Assembly (NCBI GenBank): GCA_016926395.1
Contig: JAFGOT010000012.1
Location: 1 to 43,595 of the forward strand
DNA: 43,595 nucleotides
Origin: Candidatus Woesearchaeota archaeon
GTDB taxonomy: Archaea > Nanobdellota > Nanobdellia > Woesearchaeales > SKGA01
Direction: 5' to 3'
How positions within the stretch are numbered: the stretch's first letter is position 1; each line of letters begins with the position of its first letter. Below the pieces are notes generated by a model that did no database searches, had not been told where the DNA came from, and saw only the letters and a program-made list of their open reading frames with translations. Position numbers and translations under genes: made by a program. Positions 9,894-28,452 of the stretch are shown piece after piece.

Positions 9894-10939
9894 TTGCAAA
9901 AACCAAAATAACTAACATGTAATGAATCCAAATATTCAATATTTTCATCTTTAAATACTAATCTTAAGAACTTAAAGGTCTTATCTTCTTCAGAATAAAC
10001 TTTAAAATATTGCAAATAAGATTTATCTAAGGCATCATCAAGTAAATCGATAGAAACATATTCACCATCTTGTTTCAAAATTCCATTAAATGTGAAATTC
10101 ACAGAGGAAATATTCTCAGTAAAAACAAGTGTTTTGTAAATGTTAAACAAAGAATCATCTTGAGTAAGTTCATATGAATAAGAGGTAGAACAATTAGTAG
10201 ACTCATTAAAACCAGTTCCATCAGATGCAAGAAATCCAATAATTAGAATTGCAAAAACAAATATTAAACCAATAAAAGTAATAATAAAATCTTTGATTAT
10301 TGAAGATTTTTTTTTGAATTTAAAACTTCCAAAAACAACTGAATTATATTTTAATTTGAAAGCTGAACTAAATAACAGTATAATCAACATAGTCCACAAG
10401 AAATTTTCAAAAACAGATATAAAACTCAAAGTATGAAAAATAAAATTATTCGATTGGGTGAAAAAATCTAATTTCAAAAAAAGAAATGAAAATCCATATA
10501 ATATTAAGAATAATTCAATATCAACAACATATCTATCAGAAGGGGTATAATTCATCCTTATTGAAATAAAAAATAAATAAATTAAAACCACAGATAAACC
10601 AATTATTCTCGAGATACTGTGACCTGGAAATGAAAGCATAACCTCAAAAAGATAGAAAATTAAAAAACCTGCAAAAAATAATCGAGTTAACTCAACTAAG
10701 AAAGGCAAAATTAATCTTATGAATGATTTGTTAGTTCTTTTAGAGTCTTTCCAATACGATATAAATAAAGATTTATTATGAAGATAAATCATATACCAAC
10801 CAACCATAAAAAGAACAATAAAAATAACATAAATAATTGTCAAATTATTATTATCAGAAAGATAGAATGAAAAAACAGCAACTAATAAAGATAACAAAGC
10901 AGTAATTTTCCAAAAGTCTATTTTAGTATCTAGTTGCAT
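9890..10939 (-). CDS. Multi-pass membrane protein with a soluble C-terminal domain
   Basis: 349 aa with about seven hydrophobic segments; no family recognised. Confidence 0.7.
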   Translation of the reverse strand: MQLDTKIDFWKITALLSLLVAVFSFYLSDNNNLTIIYVIFIVLFMVGWYMIYLHNKSLFISYWKDSKRTNKSFIRLILPFLVELTRLFFAGFLIFYLFEVMLSFPGHSISRIIGLSVVLIYLFFISIRMNYTPSDRYVVDIELFLILYGFSFLFLKLDFFTQSNNFIFHTLSFISVFENFLWTMLIILLFSSAFKLKYNSVVFGSFKFKKKSSIIKDFIITFIGLIFVFAILIIGFLASDGTGFNESTNCSTSYSYELTQDDSLFNIYKTLVFTENISSVNFTFNGILKQDGEYVSIDLLDDALDKSYLQYFKVYSEEDKTFKFLRLVFKDENIEYLDSLHVSYFGFCN

Positions 10940-11090
10940 GAATAAAAAATAAAGAGCGCTCTAAATAAATATTTCTAAAAAAAAGCATAAAACACAACAT
11001 TTATCCAATTTATATAAAAAAATATCATTATACGAGTTAAAACACCACTTTAAAAGAGTAAAAATATAAATAACTATTAATTTACGCTAA

Positions 11091-12065
11091 TTGGCAATGA
11101 ACTTAAATATAGATAGACCCATTGAAAGAGAAGAAGAAGACAAATTATATTATAATGAACTATATGCAGGAAAGCTAGAACAAATCATTTCTAAAAACAA
11201 AGATAAATGCATCAAAGTTGGACTATTTGCCAAGTTTGGATCTGGAAAAACAAGTACAATAAATATCCTGTGGCAAAGATTGAAGAACAAAAGAAAAGTA
11301 ACTTTAAAAAAGAAAAATAAACGATTCATCCATGTAAAATCATTATGGGATTATTCTCCCGAAGATATTCTAAAAAAAATTATTGTTTCAGTAGATAAAC
11401 AAGCAAATTTAAAACTCAATTTAAACAAAGAAATAAATTCTGAAACAACATATATAGATGAGAAAGAAAAACGAATCAACTTCTTAACATACATAACGAT
11501 TTCTCTTTTCGCATTAATTGGAATCTCATTAATCGGAAAAAACACTGCAACAATAAATATGAATAAACCTATTAATGATATTGCAACAGTGGCTCTGAGC
11601 CATTCAATGACAATACCAAGTGCAACACTCCAATTATTAATAGGTTTGATTACAACGGGCTTAGCAGTTATGTTTGCAGTTAACTCATTTAAGAAACAAA
11701 CTAGAAGACCTCCTTCTACAAGTTATGATTTTGAAGATTATTGGATACAAATTCTTAAAGCAGCAAATCAAAAAGGAATAAAAGAAATAACATTAGTAGT
11801 AGATGACTTAGATAGATGCAAACCAGAAATAGTAAATGGGATATTTGGAAAGCTAAATGCAATCGTTGAGCAAACGGAAGAAAGATCCAAAATAAGTATG
11901 AACTTAATAATTCCATTTTCACTAGCAGATTATTTATTAATCGATGGAGATAAAGAAATCGAACGACTAAAATTCAATTATAAAAAATTCTTTGATATAA
12001 TAATAGACATGCCAGAACTAGGACCATTAGAACTTCAGAGGTTAGATGAACATGAAAATAAGTGA
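11091..12065 (+). CDS. KAP-family P-loop NTPase, N-terminal part
   Basis: Walker A GLFAKFGSGKTS, two TM segments inserted in the NTPase, Walker B LVVDDLDRC, and KKFFDIIIDMP; TTG start. Confidence 0.85.
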   Translation: MAMNLNIDRPIEREEEDKLYYNELYAGKLEQIISKNKDKCIKVGLFAKFGSGKTSTINILWQRLKNKRKVTLKKKNKRFIHVKSLWDYSPEDILKKIIVSVDKQANLKLNLNKEINSETTYIDEKEKRINFLTYITISLFALIGISLIGKNTATINMNKPINDIATVALSHSMTIPSATLQLLIGLITTGLAVMFAVNSFKKQTRRPPSTSYDFEDYWIQILKAANQKGIKEITLVVDDLDRCKPEIVNGIFGKLNAIVEQTEERSKISMNLIIPFSLADYLLIDGDKEIERLKFNYKKFFDIIIDMPELGPLELQRLDEHENK

Positions 12066-14079
12066 AGAAAAACTAACCCAAAGTATTTCTAAGTACGGCA
12101 CAATAATAAAAAATCCTCGAAACTGGAGAATGTATCGAAATTTTGTATCCACTCAAGCAGACATAAAAATAAAACAACATGAATTAATGAAAAAACGAAT
12201 ACCTCAAATATACAACATAACAAATCCTGAAGATAAAATTTGTTTTTGTACATATATACTATTTCAATTTCCAGAATTAGCAGAAAAAATCAGAAAATTT
12301 CCTCAATATCAAAAGCAAATAAGGGAAATAGCAGAGCATCTTAAAGATTCAAACGACAACAAATTTGACCCTAATAACAAGATAGTTACACGAAACATGA
12401 ACTCACTCTTCAAATCTATTGAAACACCATATTTTGAAAATTCAAATGAAGCAAATATTCCAGAATATTACAAGAAAAAGCCTTCTGAAGAAGAATTTCT
12501 AAGTTTTATTGAACAAACCTACATGGACGTGCCAACAGGTCTTGAATGGGATTTTTTTATGCTGAATAATATATTAACAACAACTAACATGCTTTTAATA
12601 CAACAAACATATAGCAACAACAGAGATTCAAACATTGACAAAACACTAAAAATATTAAATAACAATTGGAATCATTACTTTCAATCAGTTGATGAATATA
12701 TGAAGTACATTCTTATTTCAGGTTTTGATTTGTATAATTTTATCAAAATATTTGTAGAGTGTAATCAAGACATCGAGAATCCAGAAATAATTTCTAAATA
12801 CCAAAAAGAAGCATTAACACTACTAGTTAAATGGATTCAAAATGAGCGGTTTCTTAATATCTTTGTTGAACAAATAATGTTTAAAATGTACATGGCAACA
12901 GATTTAGGCGAATTTGCAAGATCTGATGCTAAAATCCTAGAAAAAAATCGCTGGAATATAGCAAAGGAAGAAAAATTCTACGAACTATTTAACCAAATAA
13001 TTCAAAAGAATTGGAGAATAATGCAATCCAATCAAGACGATAATAAATTATATTCATTATTAATAAGTACATGTAGATACAACAATACTTTGCTAAAATT
13101 ATTTCACATCCCCACAGCAGTTAAAGAATATATGGATGATAGAAAAATCAATAAAGCACTATGGAGTGTGGGACCCCTAGGACAATTTTCTAATGAAGAC
13201 CAAAAGAACATATCTCAATTTCCAGCACTAACAGTTGAATTAAAGTATCGACTAAGTTTAATGAAAGAAAAAGAATCCGAATATCAATTTCCAGATCAAT
13301 TAAGTAAAGTTCGAATAGAAAAAAAACTAATTCAAGTTTATGACATTATTAACACCAACAACCCACCTGTATACATAAGAAGACAAATAATTGGAGAGTT
13401 AATACGAAAAGCAGAACAAGTATTAAGAGATCAAAAAAACAAAAATTACATCAATCCAGTTCTTGAAGGTTTAGAATCGATTGCATTAATGATTATGTAC
13501 CTAGAAAACCAAGAAACACAAAGAAACTCAAAAAACGAAAATACAGACGAATTTATTTTACAAGAAATACAATTTCCAAGAATAGTAATCGAACTTATCA
13601 GAAGCCAAACAGAACCAATAAATAAAATCGAACTAAAAAATAAAATATCGCAAACAATATTTTTAGATAAAACACAAGATCAAATGATAAAAGACTTAAT
13701 TCAATACAAAGAAAAATTACGTCCAAAAGAAAAAGAAAGCAAACGCAATACGCCTAACAAAAAAGAAACCATAAAACGAGCGGTGAAATATTTATTTGAA
13801 AATGTAGACTACGATGAACAATCGAATGGACAAATAGGGACAGGTCATTTCAAAACAAACGCAACTCAACTATTCTATGAAGAAATAACAACAGAAAAAC
13901 AACTAAAAACAGCAGAAAGAAAATATAAGAAAATATTCAAACAAAACAAAGATAAAATATTAACAATGATCATTATAATTGGAAATGAGTTCGGAGAACA
14001 ATTTGTTGAAAAAACTATTTCAATGAGAGAAGCCGCGACTGAAAGAGTTGCATTTATTGATGAATCGGAATTCAGTTAA
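12046..14079 (+). CDS. Probable C-terminal continuation of the KAP NTPase with a large helical region
   Basis: Begins with the KAP-typical NPR...R..N motif (KNPRNWRMYRN); 20-nt overlap with the upstream ORF in the +1 frame. Confidence 0.7.
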   Translation: MNMKISEEKLTQSISKYGTIIKNPRNWRMYRNFVSTQADIKIKQHELMKKRIPQIYNITNPEDKICFCTYILFQFPELAEKIRKFPQYQKQIREIAEHLKDSNDNKFDPNNKIVTRNMNSLFKSIETPYFENSNEANIPEYYKKKPSEEEFLSFIEQTYMDVPTGLEWDFFMLNNILTTTNMLLIQQTYSNNRDSNIDKTLKILNNNWNHYFQSVDEYMKYILISGFDLYNFIKIFVECNQDIENPEIISKYQKEALTLLVKWIQNERFLNIFVEQIMFKMYMATDLGEFARSDAKILEKNRWNIAKEEKFYELFNQIIQKNWRIMQSNQDDNKLYSLLISTCRYNNTLLKLFHIPTAVKEYMDDRKINKALWSVGPLGQFSNEDQKNISQFPALTVELKYRLSLMKEKESEYQFPDQLSKVRIEKKLIQVYDIINTNNPPVYIRRQIIGELIRKAEQVLRDQKNKNYINPVLEGLESIALMIMYLENQETQRNSKNENTDEFILQEIQFPRIVIELIRSQTEPINKIELKNKISQTIFLDKTQDQMIKDLIQYKEKLRPKEKESKRNTPNKKETIKRAVKYLFENVDYDEQSNGQIGTGHFKTNATQLFYEEITTEKQLKTAERKYKKIFKQNKDKILTMIIIIGNEFGEQFVEKTISMREAATERVAFIDESEFS

Positions 14080-14234
14080 GAGTAATGTTGAACTTAAATT
14101 TAATAAATTATCAATGGACAATTTTCCAACCTTACAAGTAACAATTACTGAAAAAAACAGTCTTTTCATTCATCGTCAAACATCTATTTAATTAATAAGT
14201 ATAAGTCTAAATGAACTTTTATTTATATTTAACC

Positions 14235-14264
14235 GGCAAATCTGCCTAATTAGGAAAATTTGCC
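14235..14264. promoter_or_regulatory. Imperfect 30-bp palindrome
   Basis: GGCAAATCTGCCTAA|TTAGGAAAATTTGCC, 13/15 arm match. Confidence 0.45.
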
Positions 14265-14602
14265 TATGTTTCTCCAAGTTGGAGAATTTTATTAAAATAT
14301 AGTCTATAGACAATAATTTAGAGGGGAAATAGAGTTATAACTAAATCACAATAGAATATAAAGGTAGGTTGGATAAAAAAACAACTCGGAGATGAATAAA
14401 TGACTATCGAAATAATTAACAAAATATGTTATTTCTGTGACCGAACGGGACAAGAATATAACAAAGAAGAATGCGATAATACTATTAAAATAGATAACAA
14501 TGAATTAACTTTGTGCAATAAATGTTATTTAAGATATAAAGAAGGAAAATTACCTTTAACATATACAAAAATTTAATTTATTCAAGTAGGAGATTCGAAC
14601 CT

Positions 14603-14809
14603 TTAAAGAAATGGTGACCCCAGGAGGGCCGGATTATTGACATCACGTCGAGGATGAACCTCTGAAATCCCAAAAAGAGCCACTTTCAACAGCTGATTGA
14701 TTGTCTTGGATATGTTCACACCTTGTTTTTTGAGGTTTTCGTGGGCCTCATAATCAAGATTAATATGTATCCTCACAGCTTTGTTTTTACTGTTCTTTTT
14801 TGGTCTCAT
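14603..14809 (-). CDS. Integrase N-terminal fragment (intN) with a ribbon-helix-helix-like domain
   Basis: The ORF runs through the att repeat (LLGSP is encoded by the repeat) and is in frame with intC across the repeat; RIHINLD...LKKQGVNISKTINQLL resembles an RHH fold. Confidence 0.85.
   Translation of the reverse strand: MRPKKNSKNKAVRIHINLDYEAHENLKKQGVNISKTINQLLKVALFGISEVHPRRDVNNPALLGSPFL
14611..14627 (-). repeat. att site, tRNA-distal copy
   Basis: ATGGTGACCCCAGGAGG is identical to 21981-21997 (tRNA-Arg 3' end). Confidence 0.92.
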
Positions 14810-14810
14810 T

Positions 14811-15119
14811 TTAATTATTAAGATGCTTTTCTAGTTCATCTACAAACTTATCAATGCATTTTCTAGCACCACCACCCCAAATATCATCTGAGGAAGCAGT
14901 AATATTTATGTCTGTTCCAGAATCATTAGGTCGTAAATCAATCCTAACTGGAACTCTTTGTAAACCGTATTTTGTTTTAAACTTCAAAGATTTTAAAGTT
15001 TTATTTGACTCAACATCTTTACCGATTGATTCAGCAACAGCAACAACTATATCAAAAACATTTGATAATTTTAAGTCAACAAATATACTTCGTTTAGATT
15101 CTCCAACCATAAAAAACAC
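14811..15119 (-). CDS. Hypothetical protein (element cargo)
   Basis: 102-aa alpha/beta-patterned ORF ending 1 nt before the intN start. Confidence 0.7.
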   Translation of the reverse strand: MFFMVGESKRSIFVDLKLSNVFDIVVAVAESIGKDVESNKTLKSLKFKTKYGLQRVPVRIDLRPNDSGTDINITASSDDIWGGGARKCIDKFVDELEKHLNN

Positions 15120-15146
15120 CTAATTAGAAAAATAAAAAATAAAAAT

Positions 15147-16217
15147 CTATCTTAAAGTGATAGACGTTGAAGCAGTTGCTATAACTTTTGTTGAAACTCC
15201 TCGTTTAAGATTAACTTTCAAAGTATAACTTCCAGGAGGCAATGAATCCATACTATCATAACCAACATACGTTTCTTTGTAAACACCATCATAACCCACA
15301 GGAATTTCATCAAAGTCATAAGCATAAGTATCAATGTCTCTGCTTTTCACGGAATCCAATTTCATGATATAAAAATCAAAAGTAGGATTACTAAGAGGAA
15401 TTTCTCCAACATTCTTTATGCCAACTTTAACATAATCTAGGAAACATTCATCACTATAGCTATAACAAGTAGGATTATAATCAACAACACTCAATTCTAT
15501 TTCATGCTCCTTGTTTGCTAACTCTAATAATTCTTCCTCTTCTTTGATTTGTGATTTTAATACATCTCTTCGTTCAAAAATATCATAATCAAACAAATCA
15601 TTTATTTCGTCAAGCTGAGCATCATCAAAAGCATTTAGTCTTTCAAGTTCTGCTTTATCAAGTTCGATGATTTGGGAAAAAAGTTGTTTGTATTTGGTTT
15701 CATCAGATTCTTTATTCATCTGTTCCATCAAGTCTCCTCGATTAACATTCCATTCTCTTCGTTCATATCTATAATTTACAAATGCTTCTAGAAGAGCAGT
15801 ATCATAAGCTTCAGATAATTTAGCAACACTTCGGTTCATTTGATTAATTTTTGTTAAAATAGTATCAAAATTAATTAGGTCTCCCTCTTTGCTGTATTCC
15901 CAACTTTCTTCTTCCCAGTAACCCATAAACTTTTCAAACTCATCAGTTTCTTCAAGTTTAGCTTTAGCACAAGCATTAACTACTTTATCGCCTTGGTTTA
16001 GTTCCTTACATGAGGAGAATGCAGGACATTCAATATCCAAACAACAATTATCAGATGTTTCTCCAGTTTCAATAATTCCATTACCACATATTGCTTTTGC
16101 ACTAGATTTAGAAGACAAACCAGAATCTGTAGAATCACTCGTATCACTAATTGAACAAGCAGTGAACAAGAACATCACAGTCACTAAAATAGCCAAAATC
16201 ATCAATCTAAATTTCAT
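15147..16217 (-). CDS. Lipoprotein with a Cys-rich motif, coiled coil and probable Ig-like C-terminal domain
   Basis: Lipobox-like LFTA-C; CGNGIIETGETSDNCCLDIEC; beta-rich C-terminus (VKVGIKNVGE...PPGSYTLKVNL). Confidence 0.75.
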   Translation of the reverse strand: MKFRLMILAILVTVMFLFTACSISDTSDSTDSGLSSKSSAKAICGNGIIETGETSDNCCLDIECPAFSSCKELNQGDKVVNACAKAKLEETDEFEKFMGYWEEESWEYSKEGDLINFDTILTKINQMNRSVAKLSEAYDTALLEAFVNYRYERREWNVNRGDLMEQMNKESDETKYKQLFSQIIELDKAELERLNAFDDAQLDEINDLFDYDIFERRDVLKSQIKEEEELLELANKEHEIELSVVDYNPTCYSYSDECFLDYVKVGIKNVGEIPLSNPTFDFYIMKLDSVKSRDIDTYAYDFDEIPVGYDGVYKETYVGYDSMDSLPPGSYTLKVNLKRGVSTKVIATASTSITLR

Positions 16218-16228
16218 AATAAATCACC

Positions 16229-16261
16229 TATTTGGTTAATAGATTGTTAATATTTGGTTAT
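16229..16261. promoter_or_regulatory. Three 11-bp tandem repeats between divergent genes (candidate operator)
   Basis: TATTTGGTTAA / TAGATTGTTAA / TATTTGGTTAT. Confidence 0.55.
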
Positions 16262-16583
16262 ATATTTAAAAGTTACTATTTCAAGTATGAACACATATGC
16301 AGGAAGAAACATACCTCAACTAAATACTCAAATAGAGCTTATTTCATGGCTAAAACGTGGAAAGTATAGGCGGGATGTTTTTGAACAAGTTAAAGACAAA
16401 ACAACACCTGCAGAAATTGTTGCAAGATTATCCAAACAAAGAAAATCAAGTAGTGACTACGTGCAAGTTTCTAGAGCTTTGAGAGAATTAGAATTACAAG
16501 GACTAATTAAATGTTTAAACCCGAAAGAAAAAACTGGAGGACTATATGAGAAAACATCCAAAGGAACTAAAATAATTATTTGA
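16254..16583 (+). CDS. Winged helix-turn-helix transcriptional regulator (start may be ATG 16287)
   Basis: TPAEIVARL...QVSRALRELELQGLIKCLNP...GGLYEKTSKG matches an archaeal wHTH pattern. Confidence 0.8.
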   Translation: MVIYLKVTISSMNTYAGRNIPQLNTQIELISWLKRGKYRRDVFEQVKDKTTPAEIVARLSKQRKSSSDYVQVSRALRELELQGLIKCLNPKEKTGGLYEKTSKGTKIII

Positions 16584-16816
16584 GTTTCATAACACATCAC
16601 TTCTTTGTGAATTATGATTTCTATATAATCAAATTTTCAAAAACCGTGGAAAATAAGTTAACAAATAAAAAGAACTTTCTTCAAAAAACCGAAGGGAGGT
16701 AGTGCTTTTTCCTCACACTATTATTTGCATAAAACCGAGTAGGCTCACATTTTTGAGATTCAATTTTTTGAACGGAACAACAAAAGATTTATAATATATA
16801 TAAAATAAATTAAATC

Positions 16817-17089
16817 ATGGTTAAACAAACTATGAAATCTGAAAATTTAATCTATATTTTTAGATTACTAGGTATGTTAATCATCACAGTAATTATGAGA
16901 TGTTTGTTCAGCAAAACCAACCAAGAATTTTATGATTACATATCCTATGTGTTTTCAATAGGGATATTATTATTAATATTATTACCAAATCTTCATGAGT
17001 TTAAATTTTGGGGAATTAGTGCAAAAGGAAATAATCAACAAATAGACGACACAACTAAAATAATATTGGTGAACGAAAATGGCAAATAA
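16817..17089 (+). CDS. Small two-TM membrane protein
   Basis: Two hydrophobic segments; overlaps the next ORF by 11 nt. Confidence 0.65.
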   Translation: MVKQTMKSENLIYIFRLLGMLIITVIMRCLFSKTNQEFYDYISYVFSIGILLLILLPNLHEFKFWGISAKGNNQQIDDTTKIILVNENGK

Positions 17090-17405
17090 AATAAATTTTA
17101 AAGAAGGAAGTATTAATTTTTGGATTCCGGAAAACGTATTTGACTTTGACGATAACCAAACACACATACTAGTAAATCAAGGAAATTTAGAAGGCTCAAT
17201 ATTTATTGTTAAGGATGGGGATAATAAACTTAAATTCTTTCATGTATTGCTTGGCAAAGGAAGAACAGATGTTGTTATAGATGTACAAGAGTTATTAAAA
17301 AGTGAAAAACACATGATTACTGCAACGTGGAGCATAAGTAAAAAAGAAATCAATCTTTACATTGATGGTGGGAAAAAACACAACACTACCAAAATAACGT
17401 ATTAA
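17079..17405 (+). CDS. Small beta-sandwich protein, LamG/concanavalin-like
   Basis: EGSINFWI and HMITATW...INLYIDG resemble LamG-like strands. Confidence 0.6.
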   Translation: MANKINFKEGSINFWIPENVFDFDDNQTHILVNQGNLEGSIFIVKDGDNKLKFFHVLLGKGRTDVVIDVQELLKSEKHMITATWSISKKEINLYIDGGKKHNTTKITY

Positions 17406-18850
17406 TCACAACTGACAACCGGTTTAAAACCTAATTTTTCTTCGTATTTTTCTATCATTAAATTCATAACTTCTTCTTGATGCGAAATCCCAACCATGAC
17501 TGAATCATGAATAGGAATTGCAGGAATATTTTTTGTTACTAACTCATCTAAAATTTCCAACATTATTGATGAATCTTCAAATTGTAAATCTAAACCAACT
17601 CCGGTAAAGAAAAATTCTTCAATATTTGGATGTGCTGTTCTAAATGCAGAGATTATTTCCCTTATTCTTACGTGTGTACTAATCTCATCGCCAAATTCTT
17701 CCTTTAGTTCATGATTAGAACCAAACTCTCTTGCTATTGCTTTTATTGCAGACTCTTCATCGCCACTATTGAGCATAATATTTGTTACTGCTTTGTTTAG
17801 TTTTCTTGTTCCTTCATCTCCAAAAGAATAAAGGTCTGTTTCAGAAGGATAAATATTTTTTCTATGATAAAGCATACGCAAATGCAATGTGCTATAATCA
17901 GGTTCAACGACAGATTCATCATTAATTTTTATTTCATGACGAATAACTTTTGGCAAACCTTGAACCTCACTTCCATACAATCGACCACCTTTTGTAAAGC
18001 TTGATTGATTAAATACACGTTTGATTGATAAGTGTCTTAATGAAATCGTATGAGTAAAGGGGTAATAGTTATTTACTAGTGAATCTAATATCTCATTTCG
18101 TGTGGTAGTCTGTGAATCATATCGTATATAACGTGAATCTGTATTGAAATGAGTGTATAGATGAATCCGTGTATTAAACAATAACTGCGAGTAATCTTCG
18201 TCATTCATCTGAACCGTGACTTGTTGATTTAAAATGAATTCATTGTATCTTTGAATTTTTCTCCTCATCTCATCAAGTTCAGGAGTATTTTCATAGTCAA
18301 CTAATTTTTTATGTTCATCTTTTAACTGAATAGGTTCAACAAAACCAGAATCATCAATATCCAAAGCATCGTTAGAAGAAAACCGTGGAAGTAAATTTCT
18401 AAGTTTAGTCATAGAATCAACACGAGAGTACCTTGATTTATTTGCAAAGCTAAAACCTTTCGCAGAAAGAATAAGATAATCAGTTTCAATTAATTTTTTT
18501 ATTATTGATTCAATAACAATGTTGTAAGTAAAAAATTTAGGGACATAACGAGAACGCTTATCAGAGTAATAATTTTTATTGAACGAAACTGCAACTGGAC
18601 GTTCACAACGCCAAGCAAGAAAAAAATTAGTCAGTATACAATTAAGGGCACTACGTTTAAGTTCTTGTTGATAACCTGAAGACAAGCCAAGTTCATCAAA
18701 CAAAGTATCAACAACAGAAACAAAGTTTTCATCATCAGAATAAGAACGATAATTTAAACGACGAGCACTATCAAAATATAAAGCCTCAAAATGTTTTTGT
18801 TGCAAATCTAAAAGAGATTGCTCTTCCTCAAAATCAAATTGCCAATCCAT
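17402..18850 (-). CDS. Minimal polymerase of the family A DNA polymerase / T7-type RNA polymerase superfamily (TV-Pol-like)
   Basis: In order: GGRLY (DxxGR-like), VVEPDYSTLH (motif A Asp), RKLNK (motif B RxxxK), LQFEDS, IPIHDS (motif C); no exonuclease domain evident. Confidence 0.8.
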   Translation of the reverse strand: MDWQFDFEEEQSLLDLQQKHFEALYFDSARRLNYRSYSDDENFVSVVDTLFDELGLSSGYQQELKRSALNCILTNFFLAWRCERPVAVSFNKNYYSDKRSRYVPKFFTYNIVIESIIKKLIETDYLILSAKGFSFANKSRYSRVDSMTKLRNLLPRFSSNDALDIDDSGFVEPIQLKDEHKKLVDYENTPELDEMRRKIQRYNEFILNQQVTVQMNDEDYSQLLFNTRIHLYTHFNTDSRYIRYDSQTTTRNEILDSLVNNYYPFTHTISLRHLSIKRVFNQSSFTKGGRLYGSEVQGLPKVIRHEIKINDESVVEPDYSTLHLRMLYHRKNIYPSETDLYSFGDEGTRKLNKAVTNIMLNSGDEESAIKAIAREFGSNHELKEEFGDEISTHVRIREIISAFRTAHPNIEEFFFTGVGLDLQFEDSSIMLEILDELVTKNIPAIPIHDSVMVGISHQEEVMNLMIEKYEEKLGFKPVVSCD

Positions 18851-20891
18851 TTTGTAATTCTTCCAACTCTTTTTTTGTTTGTTCTAATTCAGCTCTCTTG
18901 TGTGGATGTTGCTTAACATCATATTCAAGAGTTTTTAGTTTTTTTGTTAACTTTTCAATATTTTCTTTTTTAGTTATTTCTGCTTGACAATCAGCACATA
19001 ATTCGTTTCCTAATGAACAATAACTACATTTTGAACATGAATGATGGTACTTAACAAAAATCTTTAACAACATTTGTTTATCTAAGTAAATGAATTGTTT
19101 TTTTGCTCGATGACATAAACGATTACACTCAGCGCGAGTTTGTTCTAAAACTGGCTTTGGTGATGCAACAACAACAATTTCTGATTCACTATCACTAACA
19201 CACCTTGCAACTTGTCTGATAATTGTTCTTGAAAAGTCCGTATTACTTGATGAGTCCCTCATAGATTTAAGTACAAAACTTGTTAATACGCGTTTATCAT
19301 CAATGTGCAAGTATCCTTCTGCATCGGTTATTTCTGCAGGACCGTGAGGATTTGGTGTCACACCCAAAATAGAACAGATTATTTCAGTTAAATCTTGAAT
19401 ATCATCTTTGTTTGGAGCAAGATTTTTATCTTCATAATAATTATCAAGTGCACTAGAAATGTTATTAAGATGACGAATACCATATTTTGTTTCTGTTGCA
19501 TCAATATTAAATTCTTTAATTGCTTCATAATTATATGTAGGTCTAGTAATTGTCAACTCATCATTTAAAAAACTTAAAACAGGTAAATTTGTTTGACCAA
19601 ATTCTCTTGCCACAACTCGTTTATCATCACTATTAAAGAAAAATAATTGCACTTTATCAACGTCAGCAATATCGCCTTTCCAATTACAAGAATCACACAC
19701 TAAAGAGTCATCTTCTCTTGAAAGAAACGACTTACATTGAGGACACAAAAAATCTGTTTGCTTCATCAATATCCCTTTATCATACAAAATATCCAACATA
19801 TATAATATTGATTGTATCTTTTCGTTATTACTTGAAAATTGACCATCAAGTTTATCAAAGAAAATTAACTTAAGGAGAGATAATGCATTTTTATAATAAT
19901 TAGGTCTTTCATTATTGAAATCTGATAAGGACAACTCTTCAGGAAGAGGAAATTCTTTTAATTCTACATAATCTTCAAAAATGTCTTCAATAAGTTTTGT
20001 TAATACTTCAACCTCATCAAGAGCAACTTTTCTTCTGAAAAAAATTCTTCCCTCATCTCGGTTAATACCACAATTTAATTTGAAATCATCAAGAATATGT
20101 TCTGCATAAAGACTGACTTCCGCTCCAACTTCTAATGCTGAACGATAAATTGTACTCATCATAAGATTTCCTTCAAACCTTGATGTTAATCGTTCAGAAC
20201 CAACGTCATCACCATTCAAAATGTGAATGGAACAGCTAGATAATCGATTTGATTTTTCCTTCCAGAGTTTTATTTGAGTATCATGAAATCGTAAGATAAG
20301 AAAATCAATATCAAAAACAGAAGAGAATAAATCTTTAACTTCATCTGCTAAATCCATATTTTTTGTAATAGCAAAAAATAATGAAGTTCCTTCAACATGA
20401 ATAAATAAACAGGAATCTAAAAACTCAACTTCTTTATTATTTCCTTTCTTATCTTTATAGGTAAATACACCCAAGGAATCATATTCAAAAATTCTAAAAA
20501 TTCCTTTTTGATAAATTCTTCTTAAAACAGGTTCATCATCACTCAGTTCATCAGTATCGCGTAAATTAGCTAAAGCATCATCATCAAGGTCAACCATAGA
20601 AGATAAATTATTCTCAACTATTTTTTCATTAATATGCTCCACATACGAATCAACAACAGAAGTAGACCGATAAAGATAAAGCGTTATAGGCCCTTCAAAA
20701 ATACAAATTTCTTTCAACCAATCGACATCTGCATCTGAAAGAGAATTGACTAATTCAATACGTAAATCTTGTGCTTTTTTTGTTGGAGTCCGTTTAATTT
20801 CATACTTATCCAAAAATAAATCAAGTAAACGTGTGGGAACATATTCATCTAAGAACCGCTCCACTTCATCAGTGTCATAAGTCTCTACCAT
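18834..20891 (-). CDS. Large protein with a Zn ribbon and a C-terminal restriction-endonuclease-like (PD-(D/E)xK-type) domain
   Basis: CPQC...CDSC; GPAEITDAE...TSFVLKS followed by an alpha/beta pattern; terminal Cys cluster CSKCSYC...CADC; overlaps the polymerase start by 17 nt. Confidence 0.55.
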   Translation of the reverse strand: MVETYDTDEVERFLDEYVPTRLLDLFLDKYEIKRTPTKKAQDLRIELVNSLSDADVDWLKEICIFEGPITLYLYRSTSVVDSYVEHINEKIVENNLSSMVDLDDDALANLRDTDELSDDEPVLRRIYQKGIFRIFEYDSLGVFTYKDKKGNNKEVEFLDSCLFIHVEGTSLFFAITKNMDLADEVKDLFSSVFDIDFLILRFHDTQIKLWKEKSNRLSSCSIHILNGDDVGSERLTSRFEGNLMMSTIYRSALEVGAEVSLYAEHILDDFKLNCGINRDEGRIFFRRKVALDEVEVLTKLIEDIFEDYVELKEFPLPEELSLSDFNNERPNYYKNALSLLKLIFFDKLDGQFSSNNEKIQSILYMLDILYDKGILMKQTDFLCPQCKSFLSREDDSLVCDSCNWKGDIADVDKVQLFFFNSDDKRVVAREFGQTNLPVLSFLNDELTITRPTYNYEAIKEFNIDATETKYGIRHLNNISSALDNYYEDKNLAPNKDDIQDLTEIICSILGVTPNPHGPAEITDAEGYLHIDDKRVLTSFVLKSMRDSSSNTDFSRTIIRQVARCVSDSESEIVVVASPKPVLEQTRAECNRLCHRAKKQFIYLDKQMLLKIFVKYHHSCSKCSYCSLGNELCADCQAEITKKENIEKLTKKLKTLEYDVKQHPHKRAELEQTKKELEELQNGLAI

Positions 20892-21081
20892 AGTGTTACA
20901 ATATATAGGTTGTATTTATTCATTTCGAATACTTGGCCAAAACAAGGATAAAAAACAGCAAAATTGGACAAAAAAATCAACCCTTATTAAACGAGACATA
21001 TAACATGTAATGTTAACACAGAACCATTCTAAGCAATGTGTAAACACAATACGCAACATACCAATAATAGGACTAATTCCC

Positions 21082-21981
21082 TTAACTAATACTATTTGAT
21101 GCTGTTTTCTCCTTAAGCAGTAATACCTCACTAAGTTTCTTTGCAACTTGCTTATACCAAAACTCTGCTTGTTGATTTTTAGCTAAATAATGATTTGCTC
21201 CAATACTGTTTGAAGCACGGCCTTGTATAAAATCTGCTACTCCTTCCGGTACTCCATTATACAGTAAAAAGTTATATTGCCACTTACGAAGATACTTAGC
21301 ATTAAACGTAGCTTTTTTGTTATATACATCTTGTAATCTGTTATTACTTCCAGTTATTCTTTTCAGTTTCTCATAAACAAATAATGGTAAAAAGACTGTG
21401 TTAATATTCTTAGTTTTACGATTATTAGCAACCGAGTATGACACAAAACCGTCGTTTATCTTAAACTTATTAACATCAAACGTTTTTAAGAAATCTAAAC
21501 ATTCAACAAAACGGATTCCTGATGTAGCAAGTATCAAAAATATCAGTTCTAAATCTTCGTTTTCTTTAAGAGCCGTATAACAACTTAACACATCTTCATT
21601 ACTCGGAACATAATAATCATTACCATCCCTACCTAACTTCAAAACCTTACGATAACGCACCAATACATCGTCTTCAAGCAACTCCAACTCTTCACAGAAG
21701 TTTAGATATACCCTACAAGCTTTAACCTTATTTCGTCTTCCTGACGGTTCTGATACAATATATTGACTAAGTTCGAACGGACTATCAAAGGACTTATCTC
21801 TAAAGAATCTGTTAAAATAAGAACGAATTCCTTTAACGTAACCAGTACCGAATTTAGTACTAAGCCAAGAGATAAAATCATCTCCTCTAACAAAATTTAG
21901 GCAGTTAACGTGGGCCTCTTTGTGATGCTCATTTTGAGAATTAAGAGTTTCAACAGCTCTCCGTGATGAATGAGAAATATA
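21082..21981 (-). CDS. Tyrosine integrase C-terminal fragment (intC), SSV-type
   Basis: The frame is open from the att repeat to the stop; catalytic set SGIR...K...KYLRK...QGR...NHY (R-K-KxxR-R-Y). Confidence 0.92.
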   Translation of the reverse strand, partial: YISHSSRRAVETLNSQNEHHKEAHVNCLNFVRGDDFISWLSTKFGTGYVKGIRSYFNRFFRDKSFDSPFELSQYIVSEPSGRRNKVKACRVYLNFCEELELLEDDVLVRYRKVLKLGRDGNDYYVPSNEDVLSCYTALKENEDLELIFLILATSGIRFVECLDFLKTFDVNKFKINDGFVSYSVANNRKTKNINTVFLPLFVYEKLKRITGSNNRLQDVYNKKATFNAKYLRKWQYNFLLYNGVPEGVADFIQGRASNSIGANHYLAKNQQAEFWYKQVAKKLSEVLLLKEKTASNSIS

Positions 21982-21997
21982 TGGTGACCCCAGGAGG
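21981..21997 (-). repeat. att site, tRNA-proximal copy
   Basis: Identical to 14611-14627; covers the last 16 nt of the tRNA plus 1 nt. Confidence 0.92.
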
Positions 21998-22059
21998 ATT
22001 CGAACCCCCGACCTGCCGGTCCGAAGCCGGCCGCTCTATCCAAGCTAAGCCATGGGGCC
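21982..22059 (-). tRNA. tRNA-Arg(UCG), intronless, CCA encoded
   Basis: Acceptor GGCCCCA/TGGGGTC, anticodon arm GCCGG-CTTCGGA-CCGGC, T-loop GGTTCGAATCC, 3' ACCA. Confidence 0.97.
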
Positions 22060-22273: not shown

Positions 22274-22758
22274 CAGTAAAAGATCTTCTCAACTTGAACA
22301 TCAATTGGAGCTGTGTTATTCCTATCGATTGCTTGTTGGGAAGGGGTTTTTTCTGTCACACCTTGTTGAGAGGAAGAAGCAACTCTATTTTGAGCTTGTT
22401 GGTTGCTTTTTATGGTTGCTACAGCGGAGTGCAGTTCTTTTAATGCTTCCATTGTAGAAGATAGATTTCGCTCAAGAGTTGCTATTCGATTTTCAGAGAA
22501 TTGTTTGTAACGCGAGAACATTTGTTGTTGTTCTGCTAGACGGAGTGCAAAATTAGAATTTTCAGTTGCAGATTCTATTTGGGTAGTGATGTTTCTTCTT
22601 GACTCATCTAAATGAGATTGAGAACCAGGTACTACGTGTTGAGAACCGTTTCGAGTTATTACTGCTGTATCTCGAATACTGCTAATCGATTCTTGAGACA
22701 AGCCGCAATTAAGCAAGTCTTGCTCGATTTGAAAACTGGTGTTTGAGTTAATCTCCAT
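22264..22758 (-). CDS. Hypothetical coiled-coil protein with a C-terminal VEKIFYCG motif
   Basis: 164 aa, Q/S-rich, with a heptad-like central region. Confidence 0.75.
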   Translation of the reverse strand: MEINSNTSFQIEQDLLNCGLSQESISSIRDTAVITRNGSQHVVPGSQSHLDESRRNITTQIESATENSNFALRLAEQQQMFSRYKQFSENRIATLERNLSSTMEALKELHSAVATIKSNQQAQNRVASSSQQGVTEKTPSQQAIDRNNTAPIDVQVEKIFYCGE

Positions 22759-22891
22759 CTTACTTCTTTTTATGAGTGAGGTTATTTATAAACATTTCGC
22801 TATATTTATATCTCAGTATAGTAATTCCCACCCTAATTGAAGAAATCTTTTTAAACAAATAAAAGAAAAAAGAAAAACAGGTGCTAATATT

Positions 22892-23242
22892 ATGAAAAAA
22901 ATAATCCTATTAATTGCAGTTCTTAGCTTATTAACATTAAGTGCTTGTTCACTTGAAGGAGATAGCCCAACATGGGATCACTTGCAAAATCAAGACCCAT
23001 CAAAAATCCATCGAGATGTTGGAGTTGAAAATCCAGACGTTCCTACAACTGATGACCCAAGATGTCTTGGACAATACACAAGCGACGATGTAACGTATAG
23101 AGATTTAGAAATCAGAGCAAAAACAGAGAATAACATCGATTTATGTTATGAAATGCCTGATGAACCATTAGTTGTTTCATGTCCTGGACAAGTTACACTA
23201 ATATATTATAGTAAGGCGCGATGTCTTGAGATGTTAAGTTAA
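22892..23242 (+). CDS. Small Cys-containing lipoprotein
   Basis: MKK-hydrophobic-LSA-C lipobox. Confidence 0.75.
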   Translation: MKKIILLIAVLSLLTLSACSLEGDSPTWDHLQNQDPSKIHRDVGVENPDVPTTDDPRCLGQYTSDDVTYRDLEIRAKTENNIDLCYEMPDEPLVVSCPGQVTLIYYSKARCLEMLS

Positions 23243-23899
23243 ATGGATCTTAAAACATTAAAGAAGGTTTTCTTAAACCTTCAAACTTTCACTTCTGATT
23301 TGCCCGTTCCTCTTGTGGAATTGACAATGATTCAAACCAATGACCCGTTTAAGGTATTGGTTGCAACAATTCTTAGTGCTAGAACAAAGGATTCTCTTAC
23401 AATAACAATCCTTCCAAAATTGTTTGAAAAAGTAAAAACAATAGATGACCTAAAAAAAATCAAACAAGAACAACTTGAAAAATTAATTTACCCAATTGGA
23501 TTTTACAAAAACAAAGCTAAGTTTCTAAAACAACTACCAAAAGCATTAGATGAAAAATTTAATGGAGTTATTCCTCAAATAGTTGAAGAAGTAGTGTTAC
23601 TTCCAGGTGTTGGAAGAAAGACAGCGAATTTAGTTGTTAGTGTTGGTTTTGACAAACCTGCAATTTGTGTTGATACTCACGTTCATAAAATAATGAATAG
23701 GTTTGGATTTCTAGAAACAAAAAACCCTCTTGAAACAGAGATGGAACTTAGAAAAAAATTACCACAAAATATGTGGCAGGAAACAAACAGAATAATTGTT
23801 GCATTTGGACAATATCAATGCGTTCCTGTAAGTCCAAAATGTTCAAGTTGTCCTGTGAAAAAATATTGTGAAAGAAAAGGAGTTATGAAAAGTCGTTAA
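23243..23899 (+). CDS. nth: Endonuclease III (HhH-GPD DNA glycosylase/AP lyase)
   Basis: LPGVGRKTAN, VDTHVH, 4Fe-4S motif CVPVSPKCSSCPVKKYC. Confidence 0.95.
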   Translation: MDLKTLKKVFLNLQTFTSDLPVPLVELTMIQTNDPFKVLVATILSARTKDSLTITILPKLFEKVKTIDDLKKIKQEQLEKLIYPIGFYKNKAKFLKQLPKALDEKFNGVIPQIVEEVVLLPGVGRKTANLVVSVGFDKPAICVDTHVHKIMNRFGFLETKNPLETEMELRKKLPQNMWQETNRIIVAFGQYQCVPVSPKCSSCPVKKYCERKGVMKSR

Positions 23900-24516
23900 A
23901 ATTTAACATTTCTCCAACGCATATTTTTGTAGGATTGATTAACCTTATCAGTTAAAGAATCAAACTGCAAGGAGTCATAACCTGAACTATTTGCGATGAT
24001 TGCTTTTGAATCCTCAATAAAGTCCAAAGAAAAATGATTTATCTTAGCAGTCTTGCCTGAACTAACAGGAAATTGAATATCATTAAACAAAAAATAATGA
24101 AGACCATCATAGTGAGGTCTATTCAAAACAATTATGGAATCACGAAGAGATTTTGATTCAATAAAAGAAGAAACACGTCTTAAATCATTTACTAAAGCTC
24201 TACGATTAGTGTTAAGAAGATTTTGAACATTAAATTCCAAAGAATAATTATTAAGTGGAACAGAATGAACGTTTAATTCAGAAACAGAATGAACATCTTG
24301 ACTTCCTTGAAGTCTTGCAACTTGAAAAGCAACTGCTAAAGGAATAACATGTTGGGAAGAATAAACATCTCCTTTCATATCTTCTGAGAAATCTACAGTC
24401 TCGTCTAATTTTTTATTACCATTTACTAAATATATTTTACTCATCGGAAAGCTAAGAAAGAAGTATTTGTTTAAATTACTTTCCAAAACGCCTATCTCGA
24501 CTTTTAAAATCATCAA
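23896..24516 (-). CDS. Hypothetical protein (start probably ATG 24444)
   Basis: Open frame between nth and uppS; no motif recognised. Confidence 0.6.
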   Translation of the reverse strand: MMILKVEIGVLESNLNKYFFLSFPMSKIYLVNGNKKLDETVDFSEDMKGDVYSSQHVIPLAVAFQVARLQGSQDVHSVSELNVHSVPLNNYSLEFNVQNLLNTNRRALVNDLRRVSSFIESKSLRDSIIVLNRPHYDGLHYFLFNDIQFPVSSGKTAKINHFSLDFIEDSKAIIANSSGYDSLQFDSLTDKVNQSYKNMRWRNVKF

Positions 24517-25171
24517 TACAATTTAAAAAAGTCTCTTTATCAAGTTCAGGCCAAAGCTTGTCAACAAAAAACCACTCGCTATAAGCTGACTGCCACACTA
24601 AAAAATTACTGGTTCGAATATCACCACCAGTTCGAATGATTAAATCAGGTTGATCTTTAAGATACACATAATTATTAATTAAATCAATATCAATTTCCAA
24701 AGGATTTACTCTTCCTTCTTTAACATCATTTGCGATTTTATGAACGGCTTCAACAATCTCTTCTTGACCACCATACGCAATACAAAGATTCACAATAAAG
24801 TTATCATGTTTTGAAGTTTTTTCTTCTAAATCAGCAATGCCTTGAGCAATATCAGAAGGTAATAAATCTTTTCGACCAATATGATTTACTTTTAACCGCT
24901 TAGTCATAATAGTAGATTCTTCACCCCAATTTTTCAGTTCTTTTCTAAATAAATTAAGTAAGAAATCAAGTTCATGCTTTGGGCGATTCAAATTCTGAAT
25001 AGACAGAGCATAAATAGTGGCTTCTTTGATACCTGCTTCTTCGCACCAAGAAAGCATCTCTTCAAACTTTTGAGCACCATATTCATGACCTTTCCAAGGT
25101 TCTTTCATAAGGCGTTTTGCGAACCGCCGGTTACCATCCATGATGATACCAACGTGTAATCCTTCACTCAT
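24476..25171 (-). CDS. uppS: cis-prenyltransferase (undecaprenyl/polyprenyl diphosphate synthase)
   Basis: HVGIIMDGNRR, YALSIQN, AYGGQEEI, PDLIIRTGG, RTSNFLVWQ, RRFGK. Confidence 0.95.
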   Translation of the reverse strand: MSEGLHVGIIMDGNRRFAKRLMKEPWKGHEYGAQKFEEMLSWCEEAGIKEATIYALSIQNLNRPKHELDFLLNLFRKELKNWGEESTIMTKRLKVNHIGRKDLLPSDIAQGIADLEEKTSKHDNFIVNLCIAYGGQEEIVEAVHKIANDVKEGRVNPLEIDIDLINNYVYLKDQPDLIIRTGGDIRTSNFLVWQSAYSEWFFVDKLWPELDKETFLNCIDDFKSRDRRFGK

Positions 25172-25207
25172 AAAGCAAGAAAAGAAATAAATCCTTTTTA
25201 AATGTTT

Positions 25208-25417
25208 TTAAGATTTAGCCAAAGCCAAGTCAACATAATACTCAAGCTTTGAATCAGATAAATCAAGTAAAGAAATAAACTCATCTTTAATGGTTGTAAA
25301 TTCTTTTAAAATAGAAAGTAAATCTCGTCCAGGGTGAGAATTCATTAAATTCTCAAGTTTTCTTACTAAACGATTGTTATCAGTTTCTTCGTATTTTTTA
25401 ATTTCTGTAGACAACAA
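25208..25417 (-). CDS. Small hypothetical protein
   Basis: 69-aa amphipathic helical ORF with a TTG start. Confidence 0.45.
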   Translation of the reverse strand: MLSTEIKKYEETDNNRLVRKLENLMNSHPGRDLLSILKEFTTIKDEFISLLDLSDSKLEYYVDLALAKS

Positions 25418-25681
25418 GTATCACCTCAACTAAAACAAACAGAAACAAATTTGCTTTAAAAATAAATCTATACTAGAGAATATAAAGCCCAAAATAAGAA
25501 TTAGAGATAAAAACAAGACAAATTAGCCTTCTTTAAGTGTTAAAAAAGATAAAATACGAACCCCCATGCAAAATCAAGTGGTCAAATTCAAATAAAAAAA
25601 GCCAAATAGAAGGGAAAACTAACCGAAATTTTCCATTATATTTATAAATAAAAAGACGATTCTAGAGTATAAGTGATTACT

Positions 25682-25885
25682 ATGGGACGAATCAAAACTA
25701 AATTAATCAAAGCGTTGACAAACACTGCATATGACCAACATAAAGAGGACTTCACTGTGGACTTCAAAGACAATAAAGAAGTTATCAACAAAACTACAGG
25801 CGGAGACATTTCTAAAAAACTTAGAAACACAATTGCTGGCTATGCTACTCGAATGAAAAAACGAGATATAAAGAATCAACTTTAA
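25682..25885 (+). CDS. rps17e: 30S ribosomal protein S17e
   Basis: MGRIKTK...FTVDFKDNK...SKKLRNTIAGY. Confidence 0.95.
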   Translation: MGRIKTKLIKALTNTAYDQHKEDFTVDFKDNKEVINKTTGGDISKKLRNTIAGYATRMKKRDIKNQL

Positions 25886-25900
25886 TTTTGGTGAAACAAA

Positions 25901-26185
25901 ATGGAAGGAGCGGATAATTCTATTTTTGTAGGAACAAAACCATTCATGAACTACGTGACAGGCGTTGTTATTCAATTCACCACTAAAGATGCAAAAGAAG
26001 TTCTTGTTAAAGCAAGAGGAAAATTCATTTCCCGTGCTGTTGATGTTGCAGAAATCGCAGTTAAAAGATTTCTAAAAGATCAAATAAGAGTTCAAAGCAT
26101 CAATATTGATTCTGAAGAATTCGAGAATAAAGAAGGAAAAGACGTTCATGTCTCTACCATCGAAATTATTTTAGAGCGAATCTAA
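25901..26185 (+). CDS. albA: DNA/RNA-binding protein Alba
   Basis: IFVGTKPFMNYV, VKARGKFISRAVDVAE, VSTIEI. Confidence 0.95.
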   Translation: MEGADNSIFVGTKPFMNYVTGVVIQFTTKDAKEVLVKARGKFISRAVDVAEIAVKRFLKDQIRVQSINIDSEEFENKEGKDVHVSTIEIILERI

Positions 26186-26221
26186 AATTATTTTCTTTTT
26201 TCTTTTATTATAATTCTAAAG

Positions 26222-27097
26222 TTAATTAAAAATTATTACCTTAACAGAATCTTTTTTTGAAAGACCAATTCTTAATTCGTCGGTTTCATCAAGAGTATAA
26301 ACATGATCCTTGGAGTCAAAAGAAAGAATATATCCGGATCTTAAAGGTTTTAGAATAACCTCTTCATCACCATCAATAATCCCTGAAGTAAACTCTTGGT
26401 GACGTTGTATGTGAGTATCTCTAACTATAAAACCATAAATAGGAAGATCATTAGCAAAAGAAGTTCCACCAGCATTCTTATACCACGAAGTACTTCCCAT
26501 ACCGGTTGAAAAAACAATACCTGAACAACCCTTAAAAACTTCAATCTTCTTATCCCAATAAATTTCAAAACTAGAAGTCTTATAAGCTTCTAAAGCTCCA
26601 AAATAAATATCATTAGTTGCTAGATTTGGAAGTTCTTTACCATTAATTTTAGCATACAAACGTTTCCAAGTTTCAATAATATAATCATTATTTTTCAGTC
26701 TGAGAAGAGATTCTTTAAGATTGTTTTCTGTCGCACTTGTTAAAGCACCAATACTTCCGGCAGCAGGATCCAAATCAGCATCGGAATTAATTCCAAAAAG
26801 AAGACTCTTCTTAAAATATTGAGCAGCATTTAGAAAAGTTCCATCTCCACCAAGAGTTATTATTAAATCAAAATCATCATCAGAATAATTTTCCATATTA
26901 GAATCTGAAGTATAAGTGATAGGAAAATCTAATTCTTTACTTAAATCTTTAAACTTTTTCTCAAGACGTTTTTGTTTTTGATGAGAAACCTCAAGAGCAG
27001 TCCTTCTTTTTTCGTCAAATCGTTTGAAAACATCTTTTTTAGATTCATAGTGTTCATAGCTAGTTGTTTTGATTACACATAATATTTTTTCAAACAT
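26222..27097 (-). CDS. nadK: NAD(+) kinase family protein
   Basis: LGGDGTFL, ND short motif, STGMGSTSW. Confidence 0.85.
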   Translation of the reverse strand: MFEKILCVIKTTSYEHYESKKDVFKRFDEKRRTALEVSHQKQKRLEKKFKDLSKELDFPITYTSDSNMENYSDDDFDLIITLGGDGTFLNAAQYFKKSLLFGINSDADLDPAAGSIGALTSATENNLKESLLRLKNNDYIIETWKRLYAKINGKELPNLATNDIYFGALEAYKTSSFEIYWDKKIEVFKGCSGIVFSTGMGSTSWYKNAGGTSFANDLPIYGFIVRDTHIQRHQEFTSGIIDGDEEVILKPLRSGYILSFDSKDHVYTLDETDELRIGLSKKDSVKVIIFN

Positions 27098-27197
27098 AAT
27101 TCCACATCAAGTTCATTTTCAATACGTTAATGGTGATAAATAAATCACTAGCCATTTATAATAGTAAGGGAAAAGTGAGTATTTAGATTAATATTAA

Positions 27198-28420: not shown

Positions 28421-28452
28421 AAAACAATTTTAAGAAAAGAACTTTATAAAGA

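Follow-up and report, generated by a model that had tools for sequence, protein, structure and literature searches.

An integrase gene divided in frame between the ends of a 7.39-kb element at a tRNA-Arg(TCG) gene of a Woesearchaeota archaeon

Introduction

The mechanism of the archaeal integrases of the PF16795 family, including those of SSV1, pTN3 and pT26-2, has been set out previously (PMC8371274). These 'suicidal' (SSV-type) tyrosine integrases are recognized by the R...KxxR...Y signature of the SSV1 enzyme, in which Y314 has been shown to be the nucleophile, and those of the pTN3 type, from Thermococcus nautili, are split by their own integration (PMC8371274). The fragments of split integrases are reported to be inactive in vitro, and excision requires an intact integrase gene from elsewhere (PMC8371274). 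The hosts considered in that work are Sulfolobales, Thermococcales, Archaeoglobales and Methanosarcinales, the system is termed a trait of hyperthermophilic archaea, and no mention is made of DPANN archaea (PMC8371274). In the literature that we searched, the term 'suicidal integrase' was not found paired with the names of DPANN lineages. Here, we describe a locus of this type in a stretch of 43,595 nt, hereafter called the window, which comprises positions 1 to 43,595 of contig JAFGOT010000012.1 from a Candidatus Woesearchaeota archaeon (assembly GCA_016926395.1). An insert of 7.39 kb sits there at the 3' end of the tRNA-Arg(TCG) gene of this small Woesearchaeota-type archaeon, and its two ends carry the pieces of an integrase gene.

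An earlier note on this DNA, made from the letters alone, had proposed that the two pieces reassemble exactly in frame to an SSV1-type integrase. Our analysis leads to much the same reading. We consider it very probable that an element of ~7.39 kb has integrated at the 3' end of tRNA-Arg(TCG) by means of its own SSV-type 'suicidal' tyrosine integrase, whose nearest characterized relatives are of the pT26-2 type. This reading is carried by direct observations, namely the anatomy of the locus, the exact in-frame rejoining of the two pieces, the homology of both of them to intact integrases and the conservation of the catalytic residues. The locus appears to be that of a pT26-2-like integrase, a known kind, and no new mechanism is required to account for it: the mechanism is the textbook archaeal one, and the surprise is modest.

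Results and Discussion

The insert is bounded by copies of a tRNA 3' end

The insert is delimited by two attachment (att) sites that contain the direct repeat ATGGTGACCCCAGGAGG, exact over 17 bp and identical at 21 of 23 bp when extended (Table 1). These copies, 7,370 bp apart, are the only two in the whole assembly of 1,016,835 bp and 40 contigs. Read on the tRNA strand, the repeat runs through the 3' strands of the T and acceptor stems to the discriminator base and the encoded CCA, and has one nucleotide more; 16 of its 17 nt are the last 16 nt of tRNA-Arg(TCG). The latter is the single tRNA found in the window by ARAGORN. An intact gene is restored at attR, where ARAGORN predicts a complete tRNA-Arg(TCG) with regular acceptor and T stems, and its orthologues in genomes of the same genus show 87-96% identity. 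Read in the integrase frame, both copies of the repeat encode the peptide LLGSP.

Two gene pieces rejoin in frame as an SSV-type integrase

In the short open reading frame (ORF) at the left end of the element, intN, codon 67 begins at 14611, as noted earlier, and this is the first base of the repeat. Its last two codons (F and L) and its stop are host DNA beyond the att site, and its product ends in ...NPALLGSPFL. At the other end, the intC frame, which reads ...GVRILLGSPYISHSS..., runs without interruption between 22035, within the tRNA gene, and its stop at 21082. It comprises 317 codons, 299 of which run from 21981 on, the att base that had been said to be in frame with it. When the segments 14809..14612 and 21981..21082 are joined, the 66 and 299 codons give a stop-free sequence of 365 aa, exactly as had been calculated for the circular form. 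Agreement of frame alone would occur by chance in one case out of three; a 317-codon open frame is very unlikely at 30% G+C. As such a frame is improbable and each piece has a homology of its own to one of the two ends of intact integrases (see below), chance is not a serious alternative.

An ordinary ORF list gives only 201 aa for intC because its frame contains no ATG, GTG or TTG before 21687, and the earlier note was correct in attributing the omission of the full frame from its ORF track to the lack of a start. The database gene call on the contig is a protein of 199 aa (P0002) for a gene of 365 aa.

The intC frame codes for a PF16795 domain (Phage_integr_3, 'Archaeal phage integrase'), detected with an E-value of 9.7e-40 and 136.5 bits (cut-off 27) over positions 2-160 of the 161 of the profile, and a profile search of the genome gave the same result. 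It also matches the PHROG integrase family phrog_5127 (E 3.4e-42), and its only matches among PDB sequences are with the catalytic domain of the SSV1 integrase (3VCF, 4DKS and 3UXU; E ~5e-7). In the alignment with SSV1, residues R223, K257, K295-Y-L-R298, R321 and Y331 (joined numbering) correspond to R211, K243, K278-x-x-R281, R304 and Y314, and these catalytic columns do not vary among 22 aligned relatives. Codons 62-67 of the integrase gene contain the att site, compared with codons 64-78 for the annotated 44-bp integration site of SSV1. Both the assignment to an SSV1-type integrase with attP in its gene and the R-KxxR-R-Y signature noted earlier are thus supported.

For the 68-aa intN product, a single-sequence AlphaFold model of only moderate confidence shows an extended segment followed by helices at residues 20-28 and 33-50, with pLDDT values of 80-85 over residues 11-40. 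In addition, intN has a weak match with the Pfam family CcdA (E 0.025). The model and the match fit a ribbon-helix-helix (RHH)-like domain, with which they are compatible and of which they are no proof. Multimerization of the SSV2 integrase is controlled by its N-terminal extremity (PMC8371274), and by analogy the N-terminal domain may have a role in oligomerization or DNA binding.

The joined protein is collinear with intact integrases

The joined protein was assembled by a script from the DNA of the window, and we took integrases for comparison from the public records of free replicons. The joined protein aligns in a single BLASTP segment with the integrase of the Thermococcus sp. 26/2 plasmid pT26-2 (t26-1p, GU056179; joined residues 8-353 with residues 19-350 of 352, 29% identity, E 4e-36), with that of the Pyrococcus abyssi plasmid pGE2 (2-353 with 32-370 of 373, 29% identity, E 4e-31) and with the intact metagenomic protein P0018 (13-353 with 4-343 of 343, 43% identity, E 2e-93). 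The earlier note had made its proposal depend on a continuous alignment of the fused sequence with full-length integrases of free elements, and such an alignment is found with pT26-2 and pGE2, as well as with P0018. With the SSV1 integrase (D-335), only the C-terminal halves align, over ~200 aa (26% identity, E 1.6e-13).

The 66-aa piece alone is 40% identical over 40 aa to residues 32-71 of the pGE2 integrase and 40% identical over 35 aa to residues 19-53 of the pT26-2 integrase, and in both comparisons none of 2000 shuffled sequences scored as high. It has no detectable similarity to the N-terminus of the SSV1 integrase, for which 505 of 2000 shuffles scored as high. In a multiple alignment, the position of the junction coincides with the place of the tRNA-derived peptide in each intact integrase. 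Since the homology to intact integrases, of the pieces taken separately and of the joined protein, spans the junction, intN and intC are pieces of one gene. A word-based search for longer proteins with intN yielded no match at E 10 or better among 19 candidates, the index being unsuited to so short and divergent a piece. MAFFT, when given intN as a separate row, placed it wrongly inside the catalytic region, and that alignment was not used.

The domains of the joined integrase follow one another as in those of pT26-2 and pGE2: the N-terminus is RHH-like, a tRNA-derived peptide encoded by the att site comes next, and a middle region precedes the PF16795 catalytic domain. The proteins are collinear along almost their whole length, and all of them target a tRNA 3' end. 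However, it is only about 29-32% identical to them, and the pT26-2 integrase has N at the KxxR position where the joined integrase has K. Furthermore, hosts of the pT26-2 type are Thermococcales, Archaeoglobales and Methanosarcinales, whereas the host here is a DPANN archaeon with a small genome. With D-335 of SSV1 (Fuselloviridae), the founding SSV-type integrase, it has in common the location of attP in the gene at nearly the same codons, a tRNA-Arg target and the R...KxxR...R...Y signature. It resembles the pTN3-type integrases in being split by integration; the present element targets a tRNA gene at its 3' end.

Relatives form an apparently large clade with recurrent tRNA-proximal split forms

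In plasmid and phage collections, the best characterized matches of intC are pT26-2 (E 6e-20), pGE2 and Archaeoglobus profundus pleomorphic provirus 1 (ApPV1; E 2e-19). Further matches are with Aeropyrum pernix ovoid virus 1 (APOV1), Archaeoglobus veneficus pleomorphic virus 1 (AvPV1) and TPV1, and SSV1 is weaker (E 1e-5). No pTN3 sequence was retrieved from the plasmids with intC at E 1e-3 or better.

We built a quick IQ-TREE phylogeny of 110 rows, rooted on SSV1 and devoid of pTN3; the search was short, the branches are long and the root is uncertain, and only its starred clades are trustworthy. The joined integrase belongs to a clade of 39 rows (SH-aLRT 100) made up of loci from Woesearchaeota metagenome-assembled genomes (MAGs) and of unlabelled metagenome proteins. 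This clade is nested in one of 96 rows (SH-aLRT 98) that also includes pT26-2, pGE2, TPV1, ApPV1 and AvPV1 and is apart from SSV1, APOV1 and a Bathyarchaeia clade. The 39-row clade is distinct from the 15-row clade that holds the reference sequences. The SSV-type family named in the earlier note stands, with the refinement that the nearest characterized relatives are of the pT26-2 type rather than SSV1 or pTN3.

The clade that contains the locus appears to be large, with relatives encoded in at least 419 tblastn-confirmed stretches of JGI metagenome contigs. In six of the eight closest genome loci, a tRNA gene on the same strand overlaps the 5' end of the open integrase frame, and one of these six is again a tRNA-Arg(TCG). 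Most of the close metagenome loci have tRNA-derived peptides upstream (such as GSNP, VRIPxP and GVRILLGS) and lack a start codon. Intact forms are rare among the relatives (P0018, and P0055 with locus L162). Many public protein entries for relatives (P0003-P0064) begin with translated tRNA or are truncated at an internal start, and gene finders thus systematically mis-call split integrases.

A separate observation concerns the Woesearchaeota MAG contig JABGUJ010000002.1 (locus L010, 2871-3001), which harbours a related split integrase behind a 98-nt call of tRNA-Glu(TTC), possibly with an intron. Its peptide GVRILLGS is nearly that found at tRNA-Arg(TCG) here, despite the different tRNA.

Host and distribution

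The host genes of the window include those for archaeal TFB and Cbf5 to the right of the element and for UvrC to its left. The nearest named relatives of Cbf5, with 63-73% identity, all come from MAGs of Woesearchaeota, Nanoarchaeota or Nanobdellota. A Logan contig encodes a Cbf5 protein (P0065) with 94% identity to that of the host. The assembly has 1.02 Mb and is 82.5% complete, and the genomes of relatives have 0.7-1.2 Mb. It contains one PF16795 locus. A search for PF16795 in 17 further genomes from its GTDB family found none, and within the order 9 of 43 further genomes gave matches. The element is therefore accessory and probably a recent gain.

Integration and the present state of the element

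In the proposed course of events, attP at codons 62-67 of the integrase gene would have recombined with the identical 17 bp of the tRNA gene, which would have restored an intact tRNA and split the integrase gene. The predicted attP consists of 21964-21980, the core and 14628-14645, and the predicted attB of 14594-14610, the core and 21998-22014. The 66-codon N-terminal piece would thereby have acquired two host codons and a host stop at one end, and the 299-codon catalytic piece, devoid of a start, would have come to lie opposite it, immediately downstream of the tRNA. The circular form would carry the 365-aa integrase as the last gene of a string formed with the 356-aa and 102-aa ORFs. The insertion is probably recent in evolutionary terms. 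As neither fragment alone is expected to recombine, excision would now need an integrase in trans, whether from a related element that enters the cell or from protein that has persisted since before integration.

Several points weigh against this account. Neither the circle junction nor the empty site was found in the assembly, and neither the JGI metagenome contigs nor IMG/VR yielded a match to a degenerate pattern for attP, attB, attL and attR. Nine related tRNA-Arg(TCG) loci all lack the left flank of the window downstream of the tRNA, where an empty site would have it. The identical core is only 17 bp long, against 44 bp in SSV1, and carries little information on age. The 66-aa piece is only weakly similar to P0018, the nearest intact protein of the DPANN clade (4 of 2000 shuffles scored as high). 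The cargo appears unrelated to that of pT26-2 plasmids, such that only the integrase module would be shared with pT26-2-type elements. Finally, the recombination is deduced from an assembled sequence.

These observations also bear on the suggestion of the earlier note that the element is recent or still mobile. The intact frames and the catalytic residues argue for the first part. The second part is not supported: a split integrase gene alone cannot supply the enzyme for excision (PMC8371274), and the searches revealed neither an intact copy nor a circle junction or empty site.

A realistic, though somewhat unlikely, alternative is that the same anatomy is that of a trapped, inactive relic fixed in the chromosome, in which the 68-aa product of intN may survive as a small regulator that binds DNA. 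The single PF16795 locus of the assembly, in which no second, intact integrase was found, would fit such a relic, as would the failure to find junction and empty-site sequences in the assembly, the JGI metagenome contigs and IMG/VR, the reported inactivity of split fragments in vitro (PMC8371274) and the tidiness of the intN ORF, which has its stop from host DNA and a predicted RHH-like fold. However, both integrase fragments are free of stops and frameshifts and have kept all catalytic residues, and the large cargo ORFs are all intact. The element was found in none of the 17 other genomes of the family, which points to a recent gain rather than to an old fixed insert. The MAG is only 82.5% complete, and free circles are often lost in binning.

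It is highly improbable that intN is a free-standing RHH/CopG-type gene and intC a 5'-truncated pseudogene of a classical integrase with its att site outside the gene, joined in frame by coincidence. RHH genes are common beside integrases, the frames would match by chance in one case out of three, and the word-based search with intN was empty. Nevertheless, intN aligns with the N-termini of the pT26-2 and pGE2 integrases at a level that no shuffled sequence reached, the joined protein is collinear over nearly its full length with three intact integrases, the att peptide is placed where these have their own tRNA-derived peptide, and the intC frame starts exactly at the repeat, with no start codon. 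An assembly chimaera, in which reads of a free circle were fused to the chromosome at the shared 17 bp, is just as improbable: the contig does come from a MAG in 40 contigs, but one shared repeat would yield one junction and not the two present in this contig, host genes flank both sides, a 17-bp repeat is below the usual k-mer length of assemblies, and the arrangement of a tRNA followed by intC recurs in many independent assemblies.

Genes carried by the element

The integrated element comprises seven ORFs of 90-685 aa between the att sites, most of them without a family match (Table 1). The 482-aa protein has structure neighbours in the Atlas that are, by name, family-A DNA polymerase palm and DNA-directed RNA polymerase (TM 0.73-0.75). 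Distant tblastn matches were obtained in large phages of Vibrio, Aeromonas and Rheinheimera, and in PLSDB the protein matched three proteobacterial replicons and no archaeal plasmid. It is possibly a minimal polymerase of the element, a suggestion that we offer as a lead. A PDB sequence search with the 482-aa and 685-aa proteins gave no significant match.

Table 1. Features of the integrated element and its borders (positions in the window)
Feature	Position	Strand	Remarks
Whole element including both cores	14611-21997		7,387 bp
attL core, 17-bp repeat	14611..14627		Displaced copy of the tRNA-Arg 3' end
Element body between att cores	14628..21980		Bounded by the repeats; integrase halves at opposite ends, same orientation
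attR core, second 17-bp repeat	21981..21997		Present 3' end of the functional tRNA gene
tRNA-Arg(TCG), intact, CCA encoded	21982..22059	-	Integration target; last 16 nt from the att core
intN, 68-aa ORF	14603..14809	-	Codons 1-66 (14809..14612) are the integrase N-terminus
intC, 299 codons, no start of its own	21082..21981	-	DNA-binding middle region and PF16795 catalytic domain
Cargo ORF, 102 aa	14811..15119	-	Directly upstream of intN; stop 1 nt before the intN ATG; no family match
Cargo ORF, 356 aa	15147..16217	-	No family match
Cargo ORF, 109 aa	16254..16583	+	Weak winged-helix/transcription-regulator matches, phrog_2440 E 0.0015
Cargo ORF, 482 aa	17402..18850	-	phrog_4756 E 2.4e-50; possible family-A-like polymerase
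Cargo ORF, 685 aa	18834..20891	-	Overlaps the start of the 482-aa ORF; predicted protein of no assigned function
T-loop-like relic (GGTTCGAATC then TCCT)	14585..14601	-	9 nt outside attL

We compared the element proteins with 161 integrase loci by tblastn. A homologue of the 482-aa protein is encoded in one of them (L005) and a homologue of the 109-aa protein in another (L155), where it adjoins the integrase. No homologue of the 685-aa, 356-aa or 102-aa ORFs was found in the 161 loci. With co-occurrence limited to these two homologues, an element family cannot be defined from the cargo. Sharing of core genes with pT26-2 plasmids was not seen in a comparison made with the 482-aa protein in PLSDB.

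As a natural case of a suicidal integrase, the locus is very clean: the halves are intact, the att sites exact and the tRNA restored. It is also a complete mobile element of 7.4 kb that is precisely delimited in a DPANN genome, where few such elements are known, and it illustrates the systematic mis-annotation of such loci by gene callers. There is an even chance that it belongs to a large clade of suicidal integrases, related to those of pT26-2 and so far undescribed, that is specific to Woesearchaeota and other DPANN archaea and borne by small, very diverse elements, here with a possible minimal family-A-like polymerase. If this is true, self-splitting integration is not confined to hyperthermophiles and is a common strategy among ultra-small archaea, which are probably symbionts. 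A bolder hypothesis is that the split state acts as a switch, with IntN as a stand-alone RHH regulator and IntC produced via read-through from the tRNA promoter.

Other features of the tRNA-Arg(TCG) region

On the host side of attL, a 58-aa Cys-rich ORF (CxxC ... CxxC; 14400-14576, plus strand) ends 35 nt from the att site; no family match was found for it. The G+C content is 0.24-0.28 at positions 9000-14600, left of the element, and 0.30-0.36 elsewhere in the window. The ORFs at 11091-12065 and 12046-14079 belong to this low-G+C region, possibly a second island beside the same tRNA site.

The sequence GGTTCGAATC of the T-loop-like relic occurs twice in the window, in the relic and in the tRNA itself, for a chance expectation of 0.03. 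An earlier insertion at this tRNA, with an att site that reached into the T loop, may have left the relic as its scar. In a genome of the same genus (contig G010:C86, L094), a T-loop-like sequence, GGGTTCGAATCTGCTCAG, lies 45 nt 3' of tRNA-Arg(TCG). In two further contigs, G001:C5 (L095) and G013:C30 (L097), a second tRNA-Arg 3' end with ~30 nt of downstream flank is present ~60 nt further on. The tRNA-Arg(TCG) gene looks like a repeatedly used insertion site.

Homologues of the genes at 22400-29400 of the window are found downstream of the tRNA-Arg 3' end in four relatives (contigs G001:C5, G010:C86, G011:C4 and G013:C30). In the window, the same genes are upstream of the tRNA-Arg 5' end, with their orientation unchanged. 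This difference in the position of the flanking genes points to a rearrangement at the tRNA-Arg site.

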